From Candidatus Obscuribacteraceae bacterium (GTDB lineage: Bacteria; Cyanobacteriota; Vampirovibrionia; Obscuribacterales; Obscuribacteraceae), in NCBI GenBank assembly GCA_044226015.1, contig JBGAHS010000010.1:256001-320000 (forward strand): 64,000 nt of DNA, in the 5' to 3' direction. A program made the position numbers and the translations under genes. The notes beneath the pieces are model-generated. The model worked only from the letters and a program-made list of their open reading frames with translations, ran no database searches and had not been told where the DNA came from. Below are positions 3,556 through 13,862 of this stretch, piece after piece; position 1 is the first letter of the stretch, and each line of letters starts with the position of its first letter.

Positions 3556-5001
3556 TTACTGATTCATTTCTGAATTCTCAATTCGATCTGTTGCTTCTTT
3601 TGTCTCCATAGGTTTGAGATAAAACTCTTCGCATAATAGCAGACCTACTGATGTAATGGGAATTGCTATTAGTGCACCGGCTACACCAAGCAAAGTAGCG
3701 CCGATCAAGATGGAAAATAAAACGATCAGTGGATGCAGGTCAACACTCTTGCCGAGCAGTTGGGGAACGATGAAACTGCTCTCCACCCATTGCTCAATTC
3801 CATACAGTAAAAAGACGAGCCCCGCCAACACCGGTCCACCCCCAGTGTCTTGATTCAAGGCAACGAGAATAGCGCTGCCGGTTGCAAGAAGAGAACCTAC
3901 GAATGGAACAAGATTAAGCAGCCCTGCCATAATTCCTAGAATCAAAGCGTATTTTAATCGCAGAATGGAAAAGCCGATGAAAAGAAACGCAGCGACGCAG
4001 AGTGATACGAGCAACTGTCCACGCACGTATCCTCCCAGTCGATTCTCCAGAGGACGTATCAGCTGTGCCCATCTAGAGCGTTTGGGTTCGGGCAGCCATC
4101 GGAGTATTTTCGGCCAAAGCGATTCGGCTTCCACAACAAAGTATGCTGCAAGGAACAGCGTGAGCACCACATTTCCCAGCAAACCAAGAACGCCAGCCGT
4201 CAGGTCTATTGTTTTGGACAGCATTTTGCTTACGAAGTCTTGCAGAGTGTCGCTCTTCACTGAAAAGTTTTTGACGAGATGACTTGCAGCAGTAGATGTT
4301 GCTTGAATTTTGCTTACTGTTTCTGTTTTGCTATGTATTACTTTGTTGGAACCTTCCTCGTTTCTGTCTGAGCCAGTAAGTTCATCGCTATCAACCAGGC
4401 TTGATTTTGCGGACTTGCCTGAACTTTTACCAGGTTCATCAGAAGCAGATTTGGGGCTGGAAGTTTGACTTTCTTCAGCCGCGCTTTCTTTACTCGCGTC
4501 TTCGTTGCCAGATGCTTCTTTACTCGCGGCTTCTTTGTCAGATGCTTCTTTGACAGATGCGTCTTTGCCTGTGCTTTCGGTCTTCGAGTCTGGTGATTTT
4601 TCCGGTTCCGAACCAGTCGTTGTCAGCTTACTGTTTCCCGATGGGAGTGCTTTCGCGTTCTCAACCAAAACTGCTGCTTTGTCTAAATAGGTTGGAAGAT
4701 TGTCATACAATTGACCTGCTTCCTCTCTAATTGTGGGTACGGCTGATATTGCTAGAAAAATGTAGATCCCCATTGTAATCAGATACATGCAGAGCACCGT
4801 AGCAATGCGCGGAACTTTTCGTGCTTGTCCCCACTCGGCCACGGGAGACATTGCTGACGCGATGGTCAAAGCAAAAATGAGGCAAATAATCAGCACCTTC
4901 AACTCAATGGCGATGTAGATAAAGAGTGCTGCAAGTAGGGCGAAAAGTACAGTTTTCAGCGCAATAGCAGTTGTTTGATTTTTCTCCGTCGGGCTGAGCA
5001 T
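3556..5001 (-). CDS. AI-2E (UPF0118) family transporter with a long disordered insertion
   Basis: Multiple TM segments and motifs YVRGQ, LNLVPFVG, PQLLGKSVDLHP and GALIAIP. S/E/K-rich insert after the third TM. Confidence 0.9.
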   Translation of the reverse strand: MLSPTEKNQTTAIALKTVLFALLAALFIYIAIELKVLIICLIFALTIASAMSPVAEWGQARKVPRIATVLCMYLITMGIYIFLAISAVPTIREEAGQLYDNLPTYLDKAAVLVENAKALPSGNSKLTTTGSEPEKSPDSKTESTGKDASVKEASDKEAASKEASGNEDASKESAAEESQTSSPKSASDEPGKSSGKSAKSSLVDSDELTGSDRNEEGSNKVIHSKTETVSKIQATSTAASHLVKNFSVKSDTLQDFVSKMLSKTIDLTAGVLGLLGNVVLTLFLAAYFVVEAESLWPKILRWLPEPKRSRWAQLIRPLENRLGGYVRGQLLVSLCVAAFLFIGFSILRLKYALILGIMAGLLNLVPFVGSLLATGSAILVALNQDTGGGPVLAGLVFLLYGIEQWVESSFIVPQLLGKSVDLHPLIVLFSILIGATLLGVAGALIAIPITSVGLLLCEEFYLKPMETKEATDRIENSEMNQ

Positions 5002-5078: not shown

Positions 5079-6299
5079 TCATTTCTCGGATGATATCAGT
5101 TGAACCGCATAATCCAGAGCATCATTAACGTCTGGGAAAATCCCCCTGCATAATGGTCGAAGTGCGTTCTGTTTATTTTCGTCTCTGGCAATACCGAACG
5201 CTACAACATCAACTTCCATATTCGCTGCTTTCAATAATTCAGGAAGCCTTACCATAGGTTTGATTCCTGAAATCGTGTCTTCAAAAACATAGATTCTGAA
5301 CCGCTTTGAGCCGCTGAGATCGCGCAATTCCTGAGCGTCTCCGCTTCGGGTTGCGCGATAGGCTAAATTCAAAGTTCTGCTGTCTCCCGTGTTGAGCAGA
5401 GCAGCAAGAAACGCAGAAAGTGAATGGGTCAAATTCGGTTTAGTTAGCGCTTCTGATTTCTCATCGTGCTGAGCTGCTAACCATTCCATGCTTCCCATTC
5501 CTACTAGTGGGAAAATGTCAAGCTTCGCTGCTTGAGCTGCTATTTCGGCTTCAGGAGAATATCCCACTGTGTTGTCTATGTCGGGCGGAGGATGACTGGG
5601 TCTTGCAGTGTAAATTGCAACTCGAATTCGTTTGTCCAGGCTGAGTGCTTTGAGTTTCTCGCTGCTTGAGCTTGTCATCAAAACCTCATCAATTGTTTTC
5701 AACAATGATGGACCTTCATATGAACTGCCCAATCCGTAAGTCGAAGTGAAGTCGCTTCCTAGAATAATGTTTTGGAAAATTCTCGTTCCAAAGCTGTTGT
5801 ATGGCGAGCGCGTGTCGCTCATGAAACCATTTATTAGCGCAGAAAAAAACGCCTGGTTCCTATTACCCGAGAGTCCCTCAATCAAGATTTCTGAGAGGAG
5901 GTCTGGTGGATGACTGCTTTCACCGTGGTTTCGATAGTATTCTGCCAGGCTGATATAGTCGGGGCGGGGAGCACAAGGCGTCAGCGAAATTAGCTTGGAA
6001 AGCGCTTGTTCAGCAGTCAGCTCTATTTCTGTCGATTCTATTGATACTGTATTCAACTGCTCTGCGCAGTTTTTCAAAATTGCTGCAAATGCGATGTTTG
6101 TTATGTCCCACACATCGTGAATGCCCGTTGATTCCATGTGGGCAATTTCTTCATCACTCAAAATGAGTTCCTCAGAATTTTGAATTCCGGCAAGCTTACA
6201 GAGAAACTTCAAGCTGCTGTTTATGCCGACTTTGTACGCCAGTGGCGAAACAATGACACCATCTACGTCAAACAAGAATATGTGCTCAAAGTCGGTCAT
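5079..6299 (-). CDS. HAD-superfamily phosphatase with a large cap (candidate histidinol-phosphate phosphatase)
   Basis: Motif I FDVDGV, II YTAR, III KP, IV FEDTISG. Starts 16 nt after the kinase-like gene. Confidence 0.75.
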   Translation of the reverse strand: MTDFEHIFLFDVDGVIVSPLAYKVGINSSLKFLCKLAGIQNSEELILSDEEIAHMESTGIHDVWDITNIAFAAILKNCAEQLNTVSIESTEIELTAEQALSKLISLTPCAPRPDYISLAEYYRNHGESSHPPDLLSEILIEGLSGNRNQAFFSALINGFMSDTRSPYNSFGTRIFQNIILGSDFTSTYGLGSSYEGPSLLKTIDEVLMTSSSSEKLKALSLDKRIRVAIYTARPSHPPPDIDNTVGYSPEAEIAAQAAKLDIFPLVGMGSMEWLAAQHDEKSEALTKPNLTHSLSAFLAALLNTGDSRTLNLAYRATRSGDAQELRDLSGSKRFRIYVFEDTISGIKPMVRLPELLKAANMEVDVVAFGIARDENKQNALRPLCRGIFPDVNDALDYAVQLISSEK

Positions 6300-6315
6300 T
6301 CTTATTTTTGCTCGC

Positions 6316-7653
6316 TTAGTTTGGCTCGGTAAAGATATCGGATACTATCTCTGTGAATTTATTTTGTCCAGTGTGCTTGATGGAACCGAGAGCGATCGCG
6401 AGGGCTAGACCCAGCCATTTTATTGATTGCGGGTAGCGTTCTGCGAGTGTTCCATTTGGCACGTAATCAGCAAACAAATTTACAGTGAGGAAGGGACAAC
6501 AAAATAAAGAGCAGTGTAAATATTCCTTCCAATTTGCAGGAAGCAAATTTTTGCTCTTAAGCAGTCCAATCGTCGGTTGCAATAAGTGTGCTTTCTTTGC
6601 AGAAAGGTGTTGCAGCCTCAGAGAACTAGGGCAGAAATCGTGCTCTATGGTTATACGCTTGTTTTCGATCTCTGCGTTGAGAGTGATTTCACCAGCTACC
6701 TGCTCGGGGAAGTACATCCATCTAGCAAATATGTTGTGAAACAGTGGCTTCGTTAAGTCAAGGAGTGCATTGTGTCGACCGGCGAAGGCTGGGTCAAACA
6801 TCTTCAACTCGTGGTTTTGTCCGACCAGGAATATATTGCCATTATGAGCATCTCCGTGTCCCACAACAGTGGCAGTCATCTCTTCTGGCGCATTTTCGGG
6901 AGTGAGAAGCTGGACGCTGCGTTCGATTATTTTTGCAAGAGTATCTTCGTAGCTCACTCCATTGATTGTCCAGGTGCAGTCAGCAAGCTGTTCAAAGTTA
7001 ATGCTTCTTTCTTTGAGCGTGATGGCTTTGCTTTTGTAAAACAGCCCCAGTCGCCCATCTGCTCGGAGGCGATGTGCGAAGAGCTGGTTTATCGGAGCGC
7101 TGGACTGTTTAGATTGCGCTGTAAGTTCGAGCGATTTCTCGTAAATTGAAAATACCTGTTTCTCAAGTTCAATTTGTCCATCGAGATATGTTTCTGTCTT
7201 ATTGCTCTTGTTATTTTCTGAACTCGGATGAGAATTGGAATTAGAGCCAGCGCCCGATTCGTTGCCCTGTGAATTCTTGAGGATGATGTCCTCTGACTCT
7301 TTCAGCTTGTCGAAGAGCGTAGGGTAGGTCAGAATTTCATAAAGCGCAATTTGTTTTCCGGGTCTATGTTGAATTTGTTTAGCCGAAACTACTGGATATC
7401 CCGCTTCTGCCAGTGATTTTGCATTGTAGTACTCCGAGACTTGCTCGTTTTCTTCAACGTGAGTCTTGAAGAATACTCTTTCATTATTTGAGTATGTTAT
7501 AAATCCATTTATGGAGTTGAGGGACTCCGGTCTTGGAGTCAACTCGACCTTCGTTATTTCGGTGTCTTCGTTTTCTTGTAAAAACCTGAGTAGTTCCAGT
7601 TCCGCTCGCTGTTTCTCACTAAACTGCAATTTCTGAATCTCTAGAAGTTGCAT
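6316..7653 (-). CDS. Aminoglycoside-phosphotransferase/choline-kinase-fold protein
   Basis: FFKTH (ATP-binding Lys), HGDAHNGN catalytic loop, FDPAFAG metal-binding loop. Confidence 0.75.
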   Translation of the reverse strand: MQLLEIQKLQFSEKQRAELELLRFLQENEDTEITKVELTPRPESLNSINGFITYSNNERVFFKTHVEENEQVSEYYNAKSLAEAGYPVVSAKQIQHRPGKQIALYEILTYPTLFDKLKESEDIILKNSQGNESGAGSNSNSHPSSENNKSNKTETYLDGQIELEKQVFSIYEKSLELTAQSKQSSAPINQLFAHRLRADGRLGLFYKSKAITLKERSINFEQLADCTWTINGVSYEDTLAKIIERSVQLLTPENAPEEMTATVVGHGDAHNGNIFLVGQNHELKMFDPAFAGRHNALLDLTKPLFHNIFARWMYFPEQVAGEITLNAEIENKRITIEHDFCPSSLRLQHLSAKKAHLLQPTIGLLKSKNLLPANWKEYLHCSLFCCPFLTVNLFADYVPNGTLAERYPQSIKWLGLALAIALGSIKHTGQNKFTEIVSDIFTEPN

Positions 7654-7688
7654 TGTTCCCTCAATGATGGTTGATAGATTTGCGGAGC

Positions 7689-9017
7689 CTAGACGCCTGT
7701 TTTGTCGAAGCGAATGTCAACGCTGCGCTTGTGTGCATCAAGACCTTCTACGGTAGCGATTGTCTGCACAATCGGGCGCAGGCGCTCAAGTCCTTTCTTC
7801 GTCAATGTCGAGTACTGAACTCGCTTCATGAAAGTCCAGACTCCGACTGCTGATGTTTGCCTTGCCCAGCCGCTGCTGGGAAGTACGTGGTTAATGCCGG
7901 TGGCATAATCACCGGTCGCGACCGGATTGTAGTAGCCTAAAAACGCCGAGCCGGCATTCTCTATTTTTTCTAGCGTAGCTTCCGGTTTTTCCGTGAGTAT
8001 TTCAAGATGTTCAGGCGCATACTCGTTTGTGAAATCGATGGACTTGTCTACAGATTTTGTGACTACGATTGCGCTGTAGTTTGCCAGGGCAGTCTCAATA
8101 TACTTCTGACGGCTAAGTTGCTGATACTGCTTCTCTACTTCAGCTTGTGTCAGCTTTGCCAACTCCATTGATTCCGTAACTAGAACACCGGCAGAGTCTG
8201 GTCCGTGTTCGGCTCTAGCGAGAATGTCGGCTGCGCAATATTTTGCCTTAGTAGCAAGGTCAAGCTCGCTTGTGGTGCTGCCATCGGCCAAAATGATAGC
8301 TTCACTAGGACCCGCTGGCATATCGATGCCTACCTTGCTCTGACAAAGAATCTTGGCGGCGGTGACGTATGGGCTGCCTGGTCCAGCAATGATCTGCACC
8401 GGTGCTATCGTCTTCGTGCCGTAGGCCATAGCTGCAATTGCTTGCGCTCCACCTACCCGATAGATTTCACTGACACCACACTCATTTGCTGCGATGAGAA
8501 CCTCGTACCCTTTGCCCCTTGGTGAAATGCAAGAGACTATGCGTTTGCACCCGGCTGTTTTGGCTGCGATTGCCAGAATTTGTTGCACTGTAGGAAACGG
8601 GTTTTTTCCGCCTGGTACATAGAGTCCGGCAGATTCTATCGCTGTCCACTTCTCACCAACTGTAATACCATCTTCCAGTTGCTTTTCCCAGTTTGGAACT
8701 TGCTCTTTTTGGAGTTCATGAAAGCGCCGAGCTAACGAAATTTGTTCCTTGATTTTTTCGATTATTTGTTTGTCTGTGTTCGCGTAAGCCTCATCGATGT
8801 CTGCTTTACTAACAACCAACTTTGACTGTTCATATTCAGTGTCGTCCCATTCTCTGGTGAAGCGAACCAGTGCTTCGTCACCGTGCACACGCACTTCTTG
8901 TATGATCTCCTCGACTTTTGGTTTTACATTATCTATGTCCTGGTTTGCGCGCTGCATCACCTTTTCCATTTCAGCTGCAGAGCTTTTATCCAGTTCGTAT
9001 ATTTTGATCATGTTCAT
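7689..9017 (-). CDS. hisD: Histidinol dehydrogenase (divergent)
   Basis: Motifs YVPGG, GGAQAIAA, IDMPAGPSE, AEHG, APEHL, GDY, NHVLP and EGLDAH. Confidence 0.92.
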   Translation of the reverse strand: MNMIKIYELDKSSAAEMEKVMQRANQDIDNVKPKVEEIIQEVRVHGDEALVRFTREWDDTEYEQSKLVVSKADIDEAYANTDKQIIEKIKEQISLARRFHELQKEQVPNWEKQLEDGITVGEKWTAIESAGLYVPGGKNPFPTVQQILAIAAKTAGCKRIVSCISPRGKGYEVLIAANECGVSEIYRVGGAQAIAAMAYGTKTIAPVQIIAGPGSPYVTAAKILCQSKVGIDMPAGPSEAIILADGSTTSELDLATKAKYCAADILARAEHGPDSAGVLVTESMELAKLTQAEVEKQYQQLSRQKYIETALANYSAIVVTKSVDKSIDFTNEYAPEHLEILTEKPEATLEKIENAGSAFLGYYNPVATGDYATGINHVLPSSGWARQTSAVGVWTFMKRVQYSTLTKKGLERLRPIVQTIATVEGLDAHKRSVDIRFDKTGV

Positions 9018-9022
9018 AACCT

Positions 9023-10258
9023 CTAGTTCTTAAGGGCGAATTTTTCAAGTCGATTGCAAGCTTCCATGAGTTCGTCCTCTGCTGCTCCGAAAGAAAGTCG
9101 AATATGTTGTTCTCCGGTGGGACCAAAGGCAGCACCTGGCACTGTGATTACCTTGCCTTCCTTGAGTAATCTGACTGCATAGTCTATCGATGCTGCTCCA
9201 GAATTTATTTTCGGAAAAACGTAGTAACCACCCTGTGGTTGGTTGTAACTAAAAATATTGCTCAATCTGTCGAGCCTTTCGCAAACAAGGTCGCGTCGCT
9301 GCTTGAGCGCATCGCAGAGTTTCTGGATGCTCTTATCACCTTCGCCGTCTTTACCATTTGTAGCTTTCAGTGCGGCAAGAGCTGCAAACTGTGAAATTGT
9401 AGGAGCGCAAATGGCAAATGTGTCGTGAACCTTCAATACTTGTTGGAGAATGCGTTTGCTTGTATACATGAAGCCTACTCGCCAGCCTGTCATGCAATAG
9501 CGCTTTGAAAAACTGCAAGCTGCAATAATGTTTTCCTTGAGTTCCGGCATTGACATCAAGCTGAAGTATTCTGTCTCATCATAGATAAGGAAATCGTATG
9601 CTTCGTCGGTGACTATGAACAAGTTGTGTTCTAATGCTAGTTTTGCAATTGCCAGAAGATCCTCTTTTGCAAAAACTGTGCCTGTTGGATTGACAGGGTT
9701 GCATAAAACTATTGCTTTCGTTTTCTTGTTAATGGCTTTCTTGAAACCCTCAACATCTAGTTTCCAGCCGTCGTCTTCTCTCAATGGAACAAAGATGGGG
9801 GTGCCTTCAGCAAACAAAATCTGCTCAATATGTGACGCGTAGGTAGGCGTAGGAAGAATGACTTCATCACCTCTCTCTATGATGGTGCTGATGCCAGCTG
9901 CGAGAGCTTCCATACCACCACAAGAGATGAATATATTGTCGTCTGGGTCAACATCAACATTCTTTGTCCGTTTCAAGTCGGCTGCAATTGCCTGCTTCAG
10001 TTGCGGCATACCAGGTTGCATTGAGTATTTGCCTATCAGGCTGTCTTCCCGAGAAAGCTCTTCAATGACAGCCTGACGTATAAATTCTGGAGTGTTGAAT
10101 GATGGAATACCCTGCCCCAGCGTGACGCAACCACCAACTTGCGCTGCCAGAATGGGCATTTGTTTTATCGCGGAAACAGTTATTTGAGCCACTCGCTTAG
10201 CTATGCCAGCGTGATTCTCTTCCTGTCCTATGCCTTCGAAAACTGAACGACTCTGCAT
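9023..10258 (-). CDS. PLP-dependent class I aminotransferase (AspAT-like) inside the his operon
   Basis: NPVNPTG, DEAY and SFSKRYCMTGWRVG. ATG at 10258 overlaps the TAA of the upstream hisA-IE gene (TAATG). Confidence 0.9.
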   Translation of the reverse strand: MQSRSVFEGIGQEENHAGIAKRVAQITVSAIKQMPILAAQVGGCVTLGQGIPSFNTPEFIRQAVIEELSREDSLIGKYSMQPGMPQLKQAIAADLKRTKNVDVDPDDNIFISCGGMEALAAGISTIIERGDEVILPTPTYASHIEQILFAEGTPIFVPLREDDGWKLDVEGFKKAINKKTKAIVLCNPVNPTGTVFAKEDLLAIAKLALEHNLFIVTDEAYDFLIYDETEYFSLMSMPELKENIIAACSFSKRYCMTGWRVGFMYTSKRILQQVLKVHDTFAICAPTISQFAALAALKATNGKDGEGDKSIQKLCDALKQRRDLVCERLDRLSNIFSYNQPQGGYYVFPKINSGAASIDYAVRLLKEGKVITVPGAAFGPTGEQHIRLSFGAAEDELMEACNRLEKFALKN

Positions 10259-11493
10259 TAGCGACGTCTGCCTCCCAGTTCTGCTTCGATTTCCTTCCAT
10301 TCGATGCCTTCATCTACCGCCAAAACTGACATCATAAAAATAAGGTCTGCGATTTCCCAGCGGAGGTTGTCTTGTGATGTGTAGTTTAAGACCTCTTCTG
10401 ACTCCTCAGCAATTTTTGCAAGTAATTCCTTTCGGTCTGCAAACAGTTTGGCAGAATAAGAGTTCGGCAATGCATGCTTCTTGCGATTCTGTAGTGTTTC
10501 ATAAAGTTCGTGCAAGGTGAAATTTCGGTTCGCGCCAGCTCTGCCGAAGCAGCTATAGGTACCGTTATGGCAGGCGGCATCGGTTTGCTCAACTGTGAAC
10601 AAGATTGAATCTCTGTCACAATCAACACGGCATGATATGAGCTTTTGCGTGGAACCTGAAGTCAAACCTTTCTCCCAGATTTCCTTTCTTGAGCGGCTGT
10701 AGTAGATGCCTTTGCCCTCTGTTAAGGCTCGTTTGAGTGACTCAGCGTTGCTATAGGCAAGCATCAATACCTGTCCGGCTTTATCTTGGACAATCGTGGG
10801 GCAGAGACCGTCGCCTGCAAATTTGATAGCGCCGATTACTGACTCTGCCAGGTCGATTTTTCCGGTGTAAAGAGCCATTCCCACCTGAACATCAATGCCT
10901 AGCTTTGAAATCTCAACTATCTCTTCTGTTTTAGCGATGCCACCGGCTACGGTGAGTGGTGCCTTAATCTTTTCAATCAGTTCTTTAACTGCATCGATGT
11001 TCATTCCTCCCATGCCACCTTCGTCTTCTATGAAGGTGCTGAGAAAGCCAGAACAAAATGGAGCTAGTCTTTCGGCTCTTTCTATGAGTGTTTCACCGGT
11101 TGGGTTGACCCATCCTTTATCATAGACTTCGCCTTTCTTCTGGTCTAGAGCAACCATAACTGAAGTCCGTGGAAGTTTGCTGAGAAATTCGGGCGTGGCT
11201 GCAGTTCCGATGATAACTTGCCTGGCCCCAGCTCTCAGAATCGCTCTTGCTGTTTCGTGGGTTCTTATGCCACCTCCAACACGCGCATCAGCAACCCGGC
11301 AGATTCTTTTGATAAGCTCGAGGTTGCTTCCCTTGCCTAACGCTGCATCCAGGTCAATAACAGCAATTTCGCCATATCTACTGAATTCTGCCGCTAATTC
11401 TACGGGGTCTCGCTCGCTCTGCAAGACGAATTCCTTGCCTTGCTTTAACTGAACTGCTCGTCCATTTTGGATGTCTATACTTGGTATCAGCAT
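10258..11493 (-). CDS. hisA/hisIE: Fused HisA (ProFAR isomerase) - HisI (PR-AMP cyclohydrolase) - HisE (PR-ATP pyrophosphatase)
   Basis: HisA: IPSIDI, IDLDAA, GGGIR, VAGGI. HisI: YYSRSR..WEKGLTSG, DCDRD, ACHNG..SCF. HisE: SYSAKL..KIAEESEE..EIADL. Confidence 0.9.
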   Translation of the reverse strand: MLIPSIDIQNGRAVQLKQGKEFVLQSERDPVELAAEFSRYGEIAVIDLDAALGKGSNLELIKRICRVADARVGGGIRTHETARAILRAGARQVIIGTAATPEFLSKLPRTSVMVALDQKKGEVYDKGWVNPTGETLIERAERLAPFCSGFLSTFIEDEGGMGGMNIDAVKELIEKIKAPLTVAGGIAKTEEIVEISKLGIDVQVGMALYTGKIDLAESVIGAIKFAGDGLCPTIVQDKAGQVLMLAYSNAESLKRALTEGKGIYYSRSRKEIWEKGLTSGSTQKLISCRVDCDRDSILFTVEQTDAACHNGTYSCFGRAGANRNFTLHELYETLQNRKKHALPNSYSAKLFADRKELLAKIAEESEEVLNYTSQDNLRWEIADLIFMMSVLAVDEGIEWKEIEAELGGRRR

Positions 11494-12371
11494 ATTCTCA
11501 CCGGTATGTGTCTGGCTTTAATTTGTTCCTTCAATTTGTTTGGAGTCCAGCGACCATCATGAAAGATTGTCGCTGCTAAAGCTGCATCAGCAAATGCATC
11601 TTCGAAAACTTCGATGAAACTATCTGGACCCTGGGCGCCACCAGATGCAATGACAGGCACTGATAATTCAGACGCAAATTTTCGCACCATTTCAATATCA
11701 AAGCCCTTCTCTGTACCATCTCTGTCCCACGAGGTCAAAAGTATCTCGCCCGCTCCGCGCTTGACGCATTCCTGCGCCCATACAAAAGCATCTTTGTTTG
11801 TGTTAAGTCTGCCACCTTGAATGAGCACATCCCAGACAATTTCTTGAAAGGAATCTGCTTCTGTCTGGCTTGCGTCAGTCGTTGAGGTTATTTCGCCAAG
11901 CTTGCTCGATGGAGTCTTCGCATCTTCATTAGCCTCGCACCTGGCTTGCTTGCTTGCTCGTTTGCGCGCGTCTATTGCAAGCACGCAACATTGTGAACCG
12001 CAAGCTTCTGCTATTTCTGTGACGAGTTCTGGACGCTTTACTGCTGACGAATTAACCGAAACCTTGTCGGCACCACAGTTGAGAAGTGTCTTCACGTCGG
12101 AGAGCTGAGAGATGCCACCGCCTACGGTGAAGGGAATTGAAAGTTTGTGAGCCACCTTCTCCACAAGAGTGTATATTGTCTTTCGCTCTTCGTGAGAGGC
12201 TGTGATGTCCAGAAACATCAATTCATCTGCTCCATCTTCTTCATATCGTTGAGCAAGTTCGACAGGGTCACCCATATCACGCAAGTTCGTGAAGTTGACC
12301 CCTTTGACTGTGCGTCCATTGGCTACGTCGAGGCAAGGAATGATTCTTCGGCATAGATTATTTAGCGACAT
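11487..12371 (-). CDS. hisF: Imidazole glycerol phosphate synthase cyclase subunit
   Basis: RIIPCLDV, FLDITAS, GAGEILLTSWDRDG, IASGG. Carries an extra polar insertion of about 30 aa. Confidence 0.97.
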   Translation of the reverse strand: MSLNNLCRRIIPCLDVANGRTVKGVNFTNLRDMGDPVELAQRYEEDGADELMFLDITASHEERKTIYTLVEKVAHKLSIPFTVGGGISQLSDVKTLLNCGADKVSVNSSAVKRPELVTEIAEACGSQCCVLAIDARKRASKQARCEANEDAKTPSSKLGEITSTTDASQTEADSFQEIVWDVLIQGGRLNTNKDAFVWAQECVKRGAGEILLTSWDRDGTEKGFDIEMVRKFASELSVPVIASGGAQGPDSFIEVFEDAFADAALAATIFHDGRWTPNKLKEQIKARHIPVRIC

Positions 12372-12972
12372 TTTGCACCCACGTTCTTAAGAGTGTTTTG
12401 CCAAAACTGCTGCTTTTTTCTGGGTGAAACTGAAATGCCGTTATGTTGCCTGTCTTCACTGCTGCGCAGAACTCTACATGATAGTTAGAGCTATACAGAA
12501 TGGAATCAGCGTCTCTGGGTGCTGGGTAGTATGAATTTACAAAGTATACAAAGCCTGATTCGGGAAAGCCTTCATTGCCATTTTTTCGTTCTATCTGGTT
12601 CCAGCCAATTTGAGGCACTTTGCCTTCCTGGAATTTACGCACCGTGCCTGGTATCAGCCCGAGACCTGGCACTCCTTCGGCTTCTTCACTTGAGTCAAAG
12701 AGTATTTGCATTCCCACACAAATGCCCAGGTAGGGAGTACCTGCTTTTACGAGGTCTCTCACTCTGGCATCAAATGAGCTTGCTTTGAGATGCTGCATCA
12801 CAGGTCCAAACGCCCCTACTCCAGGCAGCAAGACCGGCTTGTCACCGCGTGGTGGATTTTCGAGGTCAGCCATGCTGAAATCCAGTTCCAGCATTTCAAG
12901 GCAGCGGCGAACACTGCCAATGTTTCCTCCACCCACGTCAACTAAATCGACTTTTGCCACCATCTTTCGCAC
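12358..12972 (-). CDS. hisH: Imidazole glycerol phosphate synthase glutamine amidotransferase subunit
   Basis: LPGVG, GICVGMQ, VPQIGWN and QFHPEKS. Confidence 0.97.
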   Translation of the reverse strand: MRKMVAKVDLVDVGGGNIGSVRRCLEMLELDFSMADLENPPRGDKPVLLPGVGAFGPVMQHLKASSFDARVRDLVKAGTPYLGICVGMQILFDSSEEAEGVPGLGLIPGTVRKFQEGKVPQIGWNQIERKNGNEGFPESGFVYFVNSYYPAPRDADSILYSSNYHVEFCAAVKTGNITAFQFHPEKSSSFGKTLLRTWVQNVAK

Positions 12973-12977
12973 CCAAC

Positions 12978-13862
12978 TCAGGTCACAATTTTCTCAAGCT
13001 TGTATTCCAAAATATCAGTGGCGCCTAGCTTGACTAATTTGGGAATGAGGTCTGGAACCTCTTTTGTGCTCACTGCAACTTTTACTGCATAGCCGTCACT
13101 GTTGTGTAGTTTGGAAACTGTGGGTGCTTTCATGCATGGCAGGTCGCCAACGATTTTGTCGAAGACATTTGCCGGCACATTCATTTCCAGAAGTACTTTT
13201 TGTCGTGCTTGCAAAGTACTCTTCATTAGCATGGTCATTTCTTCAAGCTTTTCGCGCTTTTCGGGATTGTCCAGAGCGGCTTTATTACAGATGAATCGCG
13301 TTGAAGAGCGCATCAACTCTGCCACTATTTCAAGTCGATTTTGACGCAGGGTTGCACCGCTTGATGTGTTGTCAATGATAATGTCAGCATCCTCTGGCGG
13401 CAGAGCCTCTGTGGCACCATAGGCGTGAACAAAGACTGCATCAAGGTTTTGACTCTTGATGTAGTCATTTGAAATTCGTTGATATTCGGAAGCTACAATG
13501 ATTTTTCTGCCGTTGAAGGCTTCCTTTCCTGCGCTAACGAGTTCTTCCGGCATCGCGGCAACGATACGTACAGGGTCAAAACCAAGGTCTAGCAATTCGA
13601 CAACGTCTGCATTTTGTTCGTAAATCCAATCGCGACCAGCGAAGCCGCAATCATGCCGCCCGAGAGCAACCAATCCGGGAATGTTCTTCGCTCGAAGCAT
13701 TTTTGTGACTATGAAAGAGTCGTTGCAAACGGGTCTGTAAGACCTGCCCGTCTGAGAAAAGCCGATTCCAATCTGTTCGAGCAGGTGCAGAACCTTTTCC
13801 TGAATTCGACCATTTGGAAGAGTTAGTTTGAGCTTGTCATCGTAATGCTTTTCTGTTGTCAT
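12978..13862 (-). CDS. hisG: ATP phosphoribosyltransferase, long form
   Basis: LPNGRI, GATEA, DIIIDNTSSGATLRQN and a C-terminal regulatory domain (APTVS...GATDIL). Confidence 0.95.
   Translation of the reverse strand: MTTEKHYDDKLKLTLPNGRIQEKVLHLLEQIGIGFSQTGRSYRPVCNDSFIVTKMLRAKNIPGLVALGRHDCGFAGRDWIYEQNADVVELLDLGFDPVRIVAAMPEELVSAGKEAFNGRKIIVASEYQRISNDYIKSQNLDAVFVHAYGATEALPPEDADIIIDNTSSGATLRQNRLEIVAELMRSSTRFICNKAALDNPEKREKLEEMTMLMKSTLQARQKVLLEMNVPANVFDKIVGDLPCMKAPTVSKLHNSDGYAVKVAVSTKEVPDLIPKLVKLGATDILEYKLEKIVT

Follow-up and report, generated by a model that had tools for sequence, protein, structure and literature searches.

Histidine biosynthesis is generally presented as one pathway, and we know of no enzyme other than imidazole glycerol phosphate dehydratase (IGPD), the dehydratase of HisB, for the step that it catalyzes. 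In the canonical pathway, as outlined in PMC3896937, HisB, HisC, HisN, and HisD act after imidazole glycerol phosphate (IGP) by dehydration, amination, dephosphorylation, and a four-electron oxidation. Here we analyze a histidine operon of a Candidatus Obscuribacteraceae bacterium (assembly GCA_044226015.1), which lies in a 64,000-nucleotide stretch of contig JBGAHS010000010.1 (positions 256,001 to 320,000; called the window below). The operon shares with the canonical pathway the first half up to IGP, the operon context, and the net chemistry. It differs in having no IGPD and in encoding a kinase-fold protein (KIN), a histidinol dehydrogenase without the zinc-binding Gln (altered HisD), and an aromatic-type transaminase, and its order of steps is predicted to be different. 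We estimate at about 60% the probability that histidine is made here by a reordered late route that uses a HAD phosphatase, the altered HisD, KIN, and the aromatic-type transaminase. We hold with comparable confidence that this route would end in imidazole pyruvate before amination, as judged from sequence; the exact order HAD, altered HisD, KIN is offered more tentatively.

Other described systems resemble parts of this arrangement. Class III lanthipeptide kinases (LanKC) reportedly dehydrate by phosphorylation and then elimination. LxmK (LxmKY, PDB 9DK1) shares an APH-type fold with KIN (VIA Z, 14.9; root mean square deviation, 4.6; 296 aligned residues; 11% identity). The lanthipeptide kinase/lyase dehydratases, however, have peptide substrates and a separate lyase, whereas no lyase is linked to KIN; neither a lyase nor a precursor peptide was among the recurrent neighbors of 80 KIN loci, a result that involved no genome-wide search. 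In the 2,3-dihydroxypropane-1-sulfonate (DHPS) cluster, which has two oxidoreductases and a lyase, the HisD-like HpsN oxidizes a diol to a 2-hydroxy acid, and the lyase acts afterwards (PMC11382572). HpsN retains the zinc-binding Gln, along with a His that binds the sulfonate (PMC11382572), whereas the altered HisD has neither; it is closer to HisD than to HpsN chains, and the segment corresponding to the HpsN sulfonate-binding motif lacks that His motif. Unlike in the DHPS system, the eliminating enzyme of the KIN system is predicted to have a kinase fold and the substrate is predicted to be an imidazole. Finally, the bifunctional HisB of enteric bacteria (PMC13759103) and a fusion found in KIN loci of the Ktedonobacteraceae type both combine a HAD domain with the enzyme responsible for dehydration and occupy the same place in the operon. 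In the latter, the partner of the HAD domain is KIN and not IGPD, and the HAD is of the large-cap type with no NCBIfam match.

The operon consists of eight open reading frames (ORFs) on the minus strand, running from 13862 to 5079 in the window. The features are as follows.

12978..13862, minus strand: hisG, long-form ATP phosphoribosyltransferase (PF01634 and PF08029; TIGR00070 above cut-off)
12358..12972, minus strand: hisH (TIGR01855 above cut-off)
11487..12371, minus strand: hisF, cyclase subunit of IGP synthase (TIGR00735 above cut-off)
10258..11493, minus strand: hisA-hisI-hisE fusion (PF00977, PF01502, and PF01503; HisA, PRA-CH, and PRA-PH)
9023..10258, minus strand: aromatic/aspartate-type aminotransferase (PF00155, Aminotran_1_2)
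7689..9017, minus strand: altered histidinol dehydrogenase (PF00815, Histidinol_dh, E 6e-143; TIGR00069, 450 bits)
8214..8216, minus strand: codon for Arg268, at the zinc-binding Gln position of HisD (alignment with solved HisD chains)
6316..7653, minus strand: KIN, APH/choline-kinase-fold protein of 445 amino acids (aa) (fold and motifs; weak APH match below cut-off)
5079..6299, minus strand: large-cap HAD phosphatase of 406 aa (HAD motifs and fold; no Pfam or NCBIfam match)

A first-pass annotation of this DNA had described a tightly packed his run, with overlaps or gaps of 5 to 35 nucleotides (nt), that lacked hisB, hisC, and any known phosphatase. All eight ORFs were confirmed in place, with gaps of 5, 5, 35, and 16 nt and overlaps at the remaining junctions, and neither hisB nor hisC was found inside the operon. 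Genome-wide, no gene passed the cut-off of the known HisN families (TIGR01261, TIGR01856, TIGR02067), matches to IMPase-type and HisB-N-type phosphatases were all below cut-off, and no PHP-type HisJ was found. The aminotransferase ORF opens at 10300; its likeliest start is Met15 (10258), as in several orthologues, which gives a 1-nt overlap with the stop of hisA-hisI-hisE. A scan of the operon for promoters and terminators gave results at chance level.

The annotation had also cautioned that hisB and hisC might lie elsewhere in the genome, and this held only for the latter. In the source genome (8.19 Mb in 13 contigs; 92.2% complete), IGPD (PF00475) was found neither by a profile search that was positive in 14 of 14 controls nor by tblastn. 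One HisC-family gene, above the TIGR01141 cut-off, stands alone at G000:C7:279174, away from the operon. Since its orthologues occur in same-genus genomes that lack both hisD and IGPD (G184 and G067), this gene appears to be retained without a histidine pathway. The coding stretch downstream of it (L001:2792-4040) consists of tandem repeats. The altered HisD is the sole hisD of the source genome.

The distribution of KIN was compared with that of HisB. The family set comprised 104 genomes, 14 with KIN, 53 with IGPD, and 66 with HisD. None of the 14 KIN genomes has IGPD, and hisD adjoins KIN in all of them; the other hisD genomes have IGPD in 50 of 52 cases, and the two genomes without it are 65% and 71% complete. 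No hisD was found in 38 of the 104 genomes, G184 and G067 included, which suggests that histidine auxotrophy is frequent in the family. One KIN genome (G212; contamination, 7%) carries two hisD-KIN copies (L027 and L028), the second cut by a contig end. A scan of a genome collection confirmed 416 KIN relatives, spread over 43 of the collection's 64 parts, and 80 loci were retrieved. Outside the family, IGPD was tested in 50 of 72 KIN genomes, 22 of them cyanobacterial (one assigned by its neighbors), and was present in only one, a Pseudanabaena (G267); the other 21 cyanobacterial genomes lack it. An even sample of control Cyanobacteriia (n = 230; completeness at least 90%) gave the opposite picture, with KIN in 0 and IGPD in all 230. 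Among 221 Chloroflexota genomes, the 16 with KIN all have HisD, with the altered type as their sole hisD, and none has IGPD; IGPD is present in 158 of the 164 other hisD genomes (155 of 161 without three unpublished genomes). The mutual exclusion of KIN and HisB thus recurs in three groups, the family, the cyanobacteria, and the Chloroflexota, and KIN very probably takes over the step that is done elsewhere by HisB.

Linkage to histidine genes is conserved as well. In the 80 genome loci, hisD is just upstream of KIN in 59, some his gene in 67, and IGPD in none. A second scan, of metagenomes, yielded 80 further KIN loci from taxa that partly overlap those of the first set, with hisD in 59 and IGPD in 1. 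Five IGPD operons of the family carry hisC. The 13 other KIN genomes of the family have no hisC in the operon (0/13); HAD is present in all 13 and the aminotransferase in 11. The cyanobacterial layout is hisD-KIN-HAD-hisC, many Anaerolineae have hisD-KIN facing hisG and hisZ, and a further metagenome lineage has the aminotransferase, hisG, hisD, a small HAD, KIN, hisH, hisF, and hisI/E. In loci of the Ktedonobacteraceae type, a HAD::KIN fusion precedes hisH-hisA-hisF-hisI, at the usual position of hisB. Domain fusions of KIN and HAD occur in three different arrangements. KIN is the constant part of this late-step gene set. Operons of the Ktedonobacteraceae type also encode a HisI of about 310 to 330 aa (L140:7059-8060, L144:12504-13499, and L133:11905-12900), whose 200-aa C-terminal part has no Pfam match; weak Atlas leads (0.76 to 0.86) point to a divergent HisE.

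The AlphaFold model of KIN (predicted local distance difference test [pLDDT], 87.6) has the two-lobed, protein-kinase-like fold of the APH/choline kinase superfamily. Its closest folds are PsiK, MtnK, LxmK, NahK, and TvaE (VIA Z, 13.8 to 15.5), and none stands out; PsiK, MtnK, LxmK, and NahK are tied at Z 14.7 to 15.5 and 10 to 14% identity. MtnK, PsiK, NahK, and LicA share the fold (Z, 13.8 to 15.5) and the catalytic motifs with KIN, but they are only 10 to 14% identical to it. KIN scores below the cut-off of Pfam APH (PF01636; 15.6 bits against 23.2; E = 0.014) and is assigned to no single family. Lys63, Glu74, His266, Asp268, Asn273, and Asp287 are the same in all 47 diverse rows aligned; we take these to be the beta3 Lys, the helix-C Glu, the HxD catalytic loop with its Asn, and the metal-binding Asp. 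Because these ATP- and metal-binding residues are invariant, KIN probably still transfers phosphate, and it is a candidate phosphorylation-elimination dehydratase. The possibility that KIN is a salvage kinase, forming IGP or histidinol phosphate, was rejected, as such a reaction would be futile beside a phosphatase in operons without IGPD. A profile search with KIN returned 532 clusters (clustered at 50% identity), of which 164 reached E 1e-30 or better; there was no match in phages, and a search of the ESM Atlas returned only unnamed or APH-labeled clusters. Distant homologues of 650 to 720 aa (P0355, P0362, P0366, and P0371) have an unrecognized N-terminal domain of about 280 to 320 aa.

HisD is changed wherever it is linked to KIN. 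Residue 268 of the source enzyme is Arg, and the aligned solved HisD chains have Gln; in Medicago histidinol dehydrogenase, this Gln is reported to become a zinc ligand once histidinol binds (PMC5585171). The other three zinc ligands (His, Asp, and His) are kept. His271, Glu336, His337, Asp370, and His429 are all present, Glu336 and His337 forming the catalytic Glu-His pair. In a first alignment of KIN-linked HisD, position 268 was either Arg (the family and L043) or Glu and never another residue; in a second set, 56 of 60 could be scored at the Gln column, with 44 Glu and 12 Arg. HisD from 60 genomes with IGPD and without KIN had 58 Gln, one Asp, and one Asn, and neither Arg nor Glu. Three sister proteins, 65 to 68% identical to the source enzyme, keep Gln, and two of these are in operons with hisB and hisC. 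The Glu type additionally has Asn for the zinc Asp and Ala for a conserved His, and it carries an Arg in the NAD loop, the Arg type having Arg268. Every KIN-positive member of the Chloroflexota that was checked has the Glu type, including those with unlinked hisD, and two genomes (G703 and G750) have it with neither KIN nor IGPD found. Quick trees of KIN and of HisD gave the same groups; in the latter, the Arg type and its Gln-type sisters are next to the Glu type, which is compatible with reversion or convergence.

In six KIN-positive, IGPD-negative cyanobacteria that were checked, the acquired Glu-type HisD is intact in all six, and in each of them one or more zinc or catalytic residues have been lost from the native HisD. 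The native HisD is intact in the Pseudanabaena that keeps IGPD. The six native genes (at L298, L299, L305, L306, L313, and L319) are still full-length ORFs despite the lost residues, and their products may be pseudo-enzymes with another role or the genes may be in decay. Extra HisD paralogues at L249, L250, and L251 (G592 and G726) have Lys after the zinc Asp, as in HpsN, and form a separate clade in the tree. The altered HisD argues for a changed order of steps and not for a one-for-one replacement, and the enzyme may oxidize imidazole glycerol.

The operon aminotransferase scores 125.8 bits against the HisC model TIGR01141 (cut-off, 276.55), and its nearest solved relative is 1GD9/1DJU, labeled aspartate/aromatic aminotransferase (E = 7e-77). 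Orthologues of 63 to 75% identity are in 12 of the 14 KIN operons of the family, the source operon included; in five genomes that lack it in the his operon, the best match is at most 35%. A second KIN lineage has an operon aminotransferase 43 to 49% identical to the source enzyme. A GntC-like cyclodehydratase role was considered, GntC being the top NCBIfam match, and was rejected on score (315 versus 415 bits) and because the gene is dispensable. General aminotransferases can turn imidazole pyruvate into histidine (10.1101/2024.03.19.585368), and this may be the reaction of the operon enzyme. In cyanobacteria, the HisC-family gene beside KIN passes TIGR01141, but its product lacks Tyr20 and Arg322 (E. 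coli numbering) in 9 of 9 loci, probably of one clade, and retains the Arg aligned with E. coli Arg335. IGPD-linked HisC, by comparison, keeps Arg322 in 9 of 9. In Mycobacterium tuberculosis histidinol phosphate aminotransferase, a lid Tyr and two Arg residues grip histidinol phosphate (PMC4703992), and these residues appear to correspond to the Tyr and Arg residues compared here. In L015:7670-8704 (G181), the similarity of the hisC ORF ends near residue 250, as after a frameshift or an assembly error.

The HAD model (pLDDT, 94.9) has as its best Foldseek match the structural-genomics target 1QYI (E = 1e-9). Motifs I to IV (DxD, Thr, Lys, and the acidic pair) are present, and Asp11, Asp13, Thr231, Lys287, and Asp341 are invariant in 23 of 23 rows. 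HAD was found in 20 of 22 KIN cyanobacteria and in none of 10 family genomes with IGPD. Two other homologues (L197 and L198) are outside his operons. The protein is a plausible histidine-pathway phosphatase in both KIN and canonical settings and thus a new candidate HisN family; it would dephosphorylate IGP in the KIN operon and histidinol phosphate in canonical operons.

More distant members of the KIN family, about 30% identical, are present on 106 plasmids. Five such clusters were read (L233, L234, L235, L236, and L321, from Sinorhizobium, Pantoea, Rhizobium, Shinella, and Klebsiella). All five contain HisD and KIN with an ABC importer, a short-chain dehydrogenase/reductase (SDR), and a zinc dehydrogenase; three of them also have HutC, two have an alpha-hydroxy-acid oxidase, and one has an aromatic aminotransferase, and a HAD phosphatase is listed in none of the five. 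All four plasmid HisD proteins aligned are of the Glu type. The layout of regulator, importer, and two oxidoreductases is similar to that of the DHPS genes HpsN, HpsO, HpsP, and SuyAB (PMC11382572). In a Sinorhizobium meliloti tolC mutant, hisC3, ABC, hisD2, and GntR regulator genes are reported to drop together with hut and nitrogen-scavenging genes (PMC2912261); we matched these hisD2 genes to the plasmid KIN locus by gene order alone. The accessible part of PMC8844928 does not name a substrate of the S. meliloti importer. The plasmid clusters probably scavenge an imidazole polyol such as imidazole glycerol.

The reordered route would proceed in four steps. HAD would remove the phosphate from IGP to give imidazole glycerol, whose C2, as derived from its origin in D-ribose, matches that of L-histidinol in configuration, a hydroxyl standing in place of the amino group. 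The altered HisD would oxidize the primary alcohol released in this way, yielding imidazole glycerate; its changed zinc site would leave space for the additional 3-hydroxyl. KIN would phosphorylate this 3-hydroxyl, and the phosphate would be eliminated with the assistance of the imidazole ring to give imidazole pyruvate. The aromatic-type aminotransferase would then aminate imidazole pyruvate to histidine. A single scheme of this kind would explain why hisB and hisC have been lost, why HisD is altered, why native HisD decays, and why the transaminase is of its particular type, and it would also cover the uptake clusters.

Several observations weigh against this route, and many of them fit a plain replacement in the usual order of steps. 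Under that explanation, KIN would be an ATP-dependent IGP dehydratase yielding imidazole acetol phosphate, the transaminase or the distant HisC would aminate the product, HAD would act as HisN, and the altered HisD would still oxidize histidinol. The HAD::KIN fusions stand in the hisB position and have the same phosphatase::dehydratase arrangement as enteric HisB. Five canonical Chloroflexota operons with hisB and hisC (L192 to L196) end in a HAD homologue, which fits a histidinol-phosphate phosphatase and therefore the usual order. Besides the 22 cyanobacteria, HAD was found in only 3 of the 26 other KIN genomes tested, mostly Anaerolineae (not found in 22 of 25 when the Micromonosporaceae genome is also excluded). 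The unlinked HisC-family protein of the source genome keeps the phosphate-binding Tyr and Arg, as does HisC in five KIN loci of one type (L073, from Micromonosporaceae, and L345, L349, L359, and L360). Canonical partners are thus kept in these five loci, as they are at L381, where an intact-looking IGPD accompanies Glu-type HisD and KIN. There (L381:1040-4496), IGPD is directly downstream of hisD and KIN is on the opposite strand; the locus is possibly transitional, with both routes. G267 likewise has both KIN and IGPD. Further, the OH-for-NH2 difference cannot by itself account for the loss of Gln, because HpsN oxidizes a 2-hydroxy substrate and yet keeps Gln, and only three group-consistent positions separate the Arg type from its Gln-type sisters. 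No separate phosphate lyase is linked to KIN, unlike in lanthipeptide systems, and every reaction of the scheme is inferred. A plain replacement nevertheless does not explain why HisD has lost its zinc Gln at every KIN locus, and through two distinct substitutions. It also leaves unexplained why cyanobacteria acquired an altered HisD while their own decayed, why hisC leaves the operon or loses its phosphate-binding residues, and why KIN is in plasmid uptake clusters. We regard it as unlikely, though the most serious of the competing explanations.

Somewhat less probable still is a variant of the reordered route in which KIN acts before the altered HisD and the path still ends in imidazole pyruvate, either by dehydration to imidazole acetol (phosphate) or by elimination of the 3-phosphate after the first HisD oxidation. 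In its favor, both types of altered HisD have acquired an Arg close to the active site that could bind phosphate, fusions join KIN to HAD in three arrangements, and imidazole-assisted elimination in IGPD needs no carboxylate. The 2-hydroxy-acid enzymes of the plasmids, with their DHPS-like pair of SDR and zinc dehydrogenase, however, fit oxidation of a diol to a hydroxy acid by the altered HisD. The first-pass annotation had offered a non-orthologous late pathway or a branch from IGP or histidinol to another imidazole metabolite. The former is strongly supported by the mutual exclusion with HisB and by linkage conserved across several phyla. The branch, with the organism auxotrophic or using undetected his genes, agrees with the absence of hisD in many family genomes, which makes auxotrophy common, and with the catabolic look of the plasmid homologues. 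It is very improbable and finds no support at this operon, given that KIN replaces IGPD in cyanobacteria, where every control keeps it, fills the hisB slot of otherwise ordinary his operons, and accompanies the sole hisD of the source genome and of the KIN-positive Chloroflexota. The kinase, HAD, and transaminase had been taken as one set replacing exactly three steps. An obligatory trio was rejected: KIN is constant, but HAD and the transaminase are each separable from it, HAD being present in canonical operons and the transaminase missing from 2 of 14 family operons, and HisD is altered too (Arg268), which had been overlooked. That hisB is missing merely from incomplete assemblies, with incidental linkage, has next to no probability and was rejected. 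The source genome is 92% complete, the KIN hosts are mostly incomplete metagenome-assembled genomes, and related genomes are not independent, so that Fisher values overstate the exclusion; IGPD was nonetheless not found in any of the 14 KIN genomes of the family or in 49 of the 50 outside it, whereas nearly all controls have it.

Downstream of HAD by 77 nt, on the same strand, is a gene for an AI-2E family transporter with a long low-complexity insert (window positions 3556-5001). A transporter of this family is near the operon also in G232 and G233.

In openly licensed PMC and bioRxiv text, supplements excluded (S1 Text of PMC13759103 could bear on this), no alternative to HisB, KIN family, or route of this kind was found described. 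In the accessible part of the 2026 GapMind study, HisN and HisI, and not HisB, are among the four commonest gaps, and hisB is mentioned only as fused hisBN (PMC13759103); the accessible part of a gut-microbiome reconstruction lists one histidine route (PMC9026213). The HisB-free variant of histidine biosynthesis is real, widespread, and apparently undescribed, and its order of steps is probably new. On balance, we lean slightly toward a histidinol-free second route that has spread by gene transfer through Melainabacteria, cyanobacteria, Chloroflexota, and others, the same core of altered HisD and KIN serving to scavenge imidazole glycerol in rhizobia and enterobacteria. Even under plain replacement, KIN would represent a new family of IGP dehydratases, and HAD would be a candidate for a new HisN family. 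A HisB-free route would mean that a small-molecule dehydratase can be built on a kinase fold, and it would assign a role to the rhizobial hisD2 clusters, so far unexplained. IGPD is said to be a herbicide and antimicrobial target, and organisms with KIN would not depend on it. A HisB-free route would also correct auxotrophy calls for several hundred genomes, to judge from the confirmed relatives and their spread through the collection.

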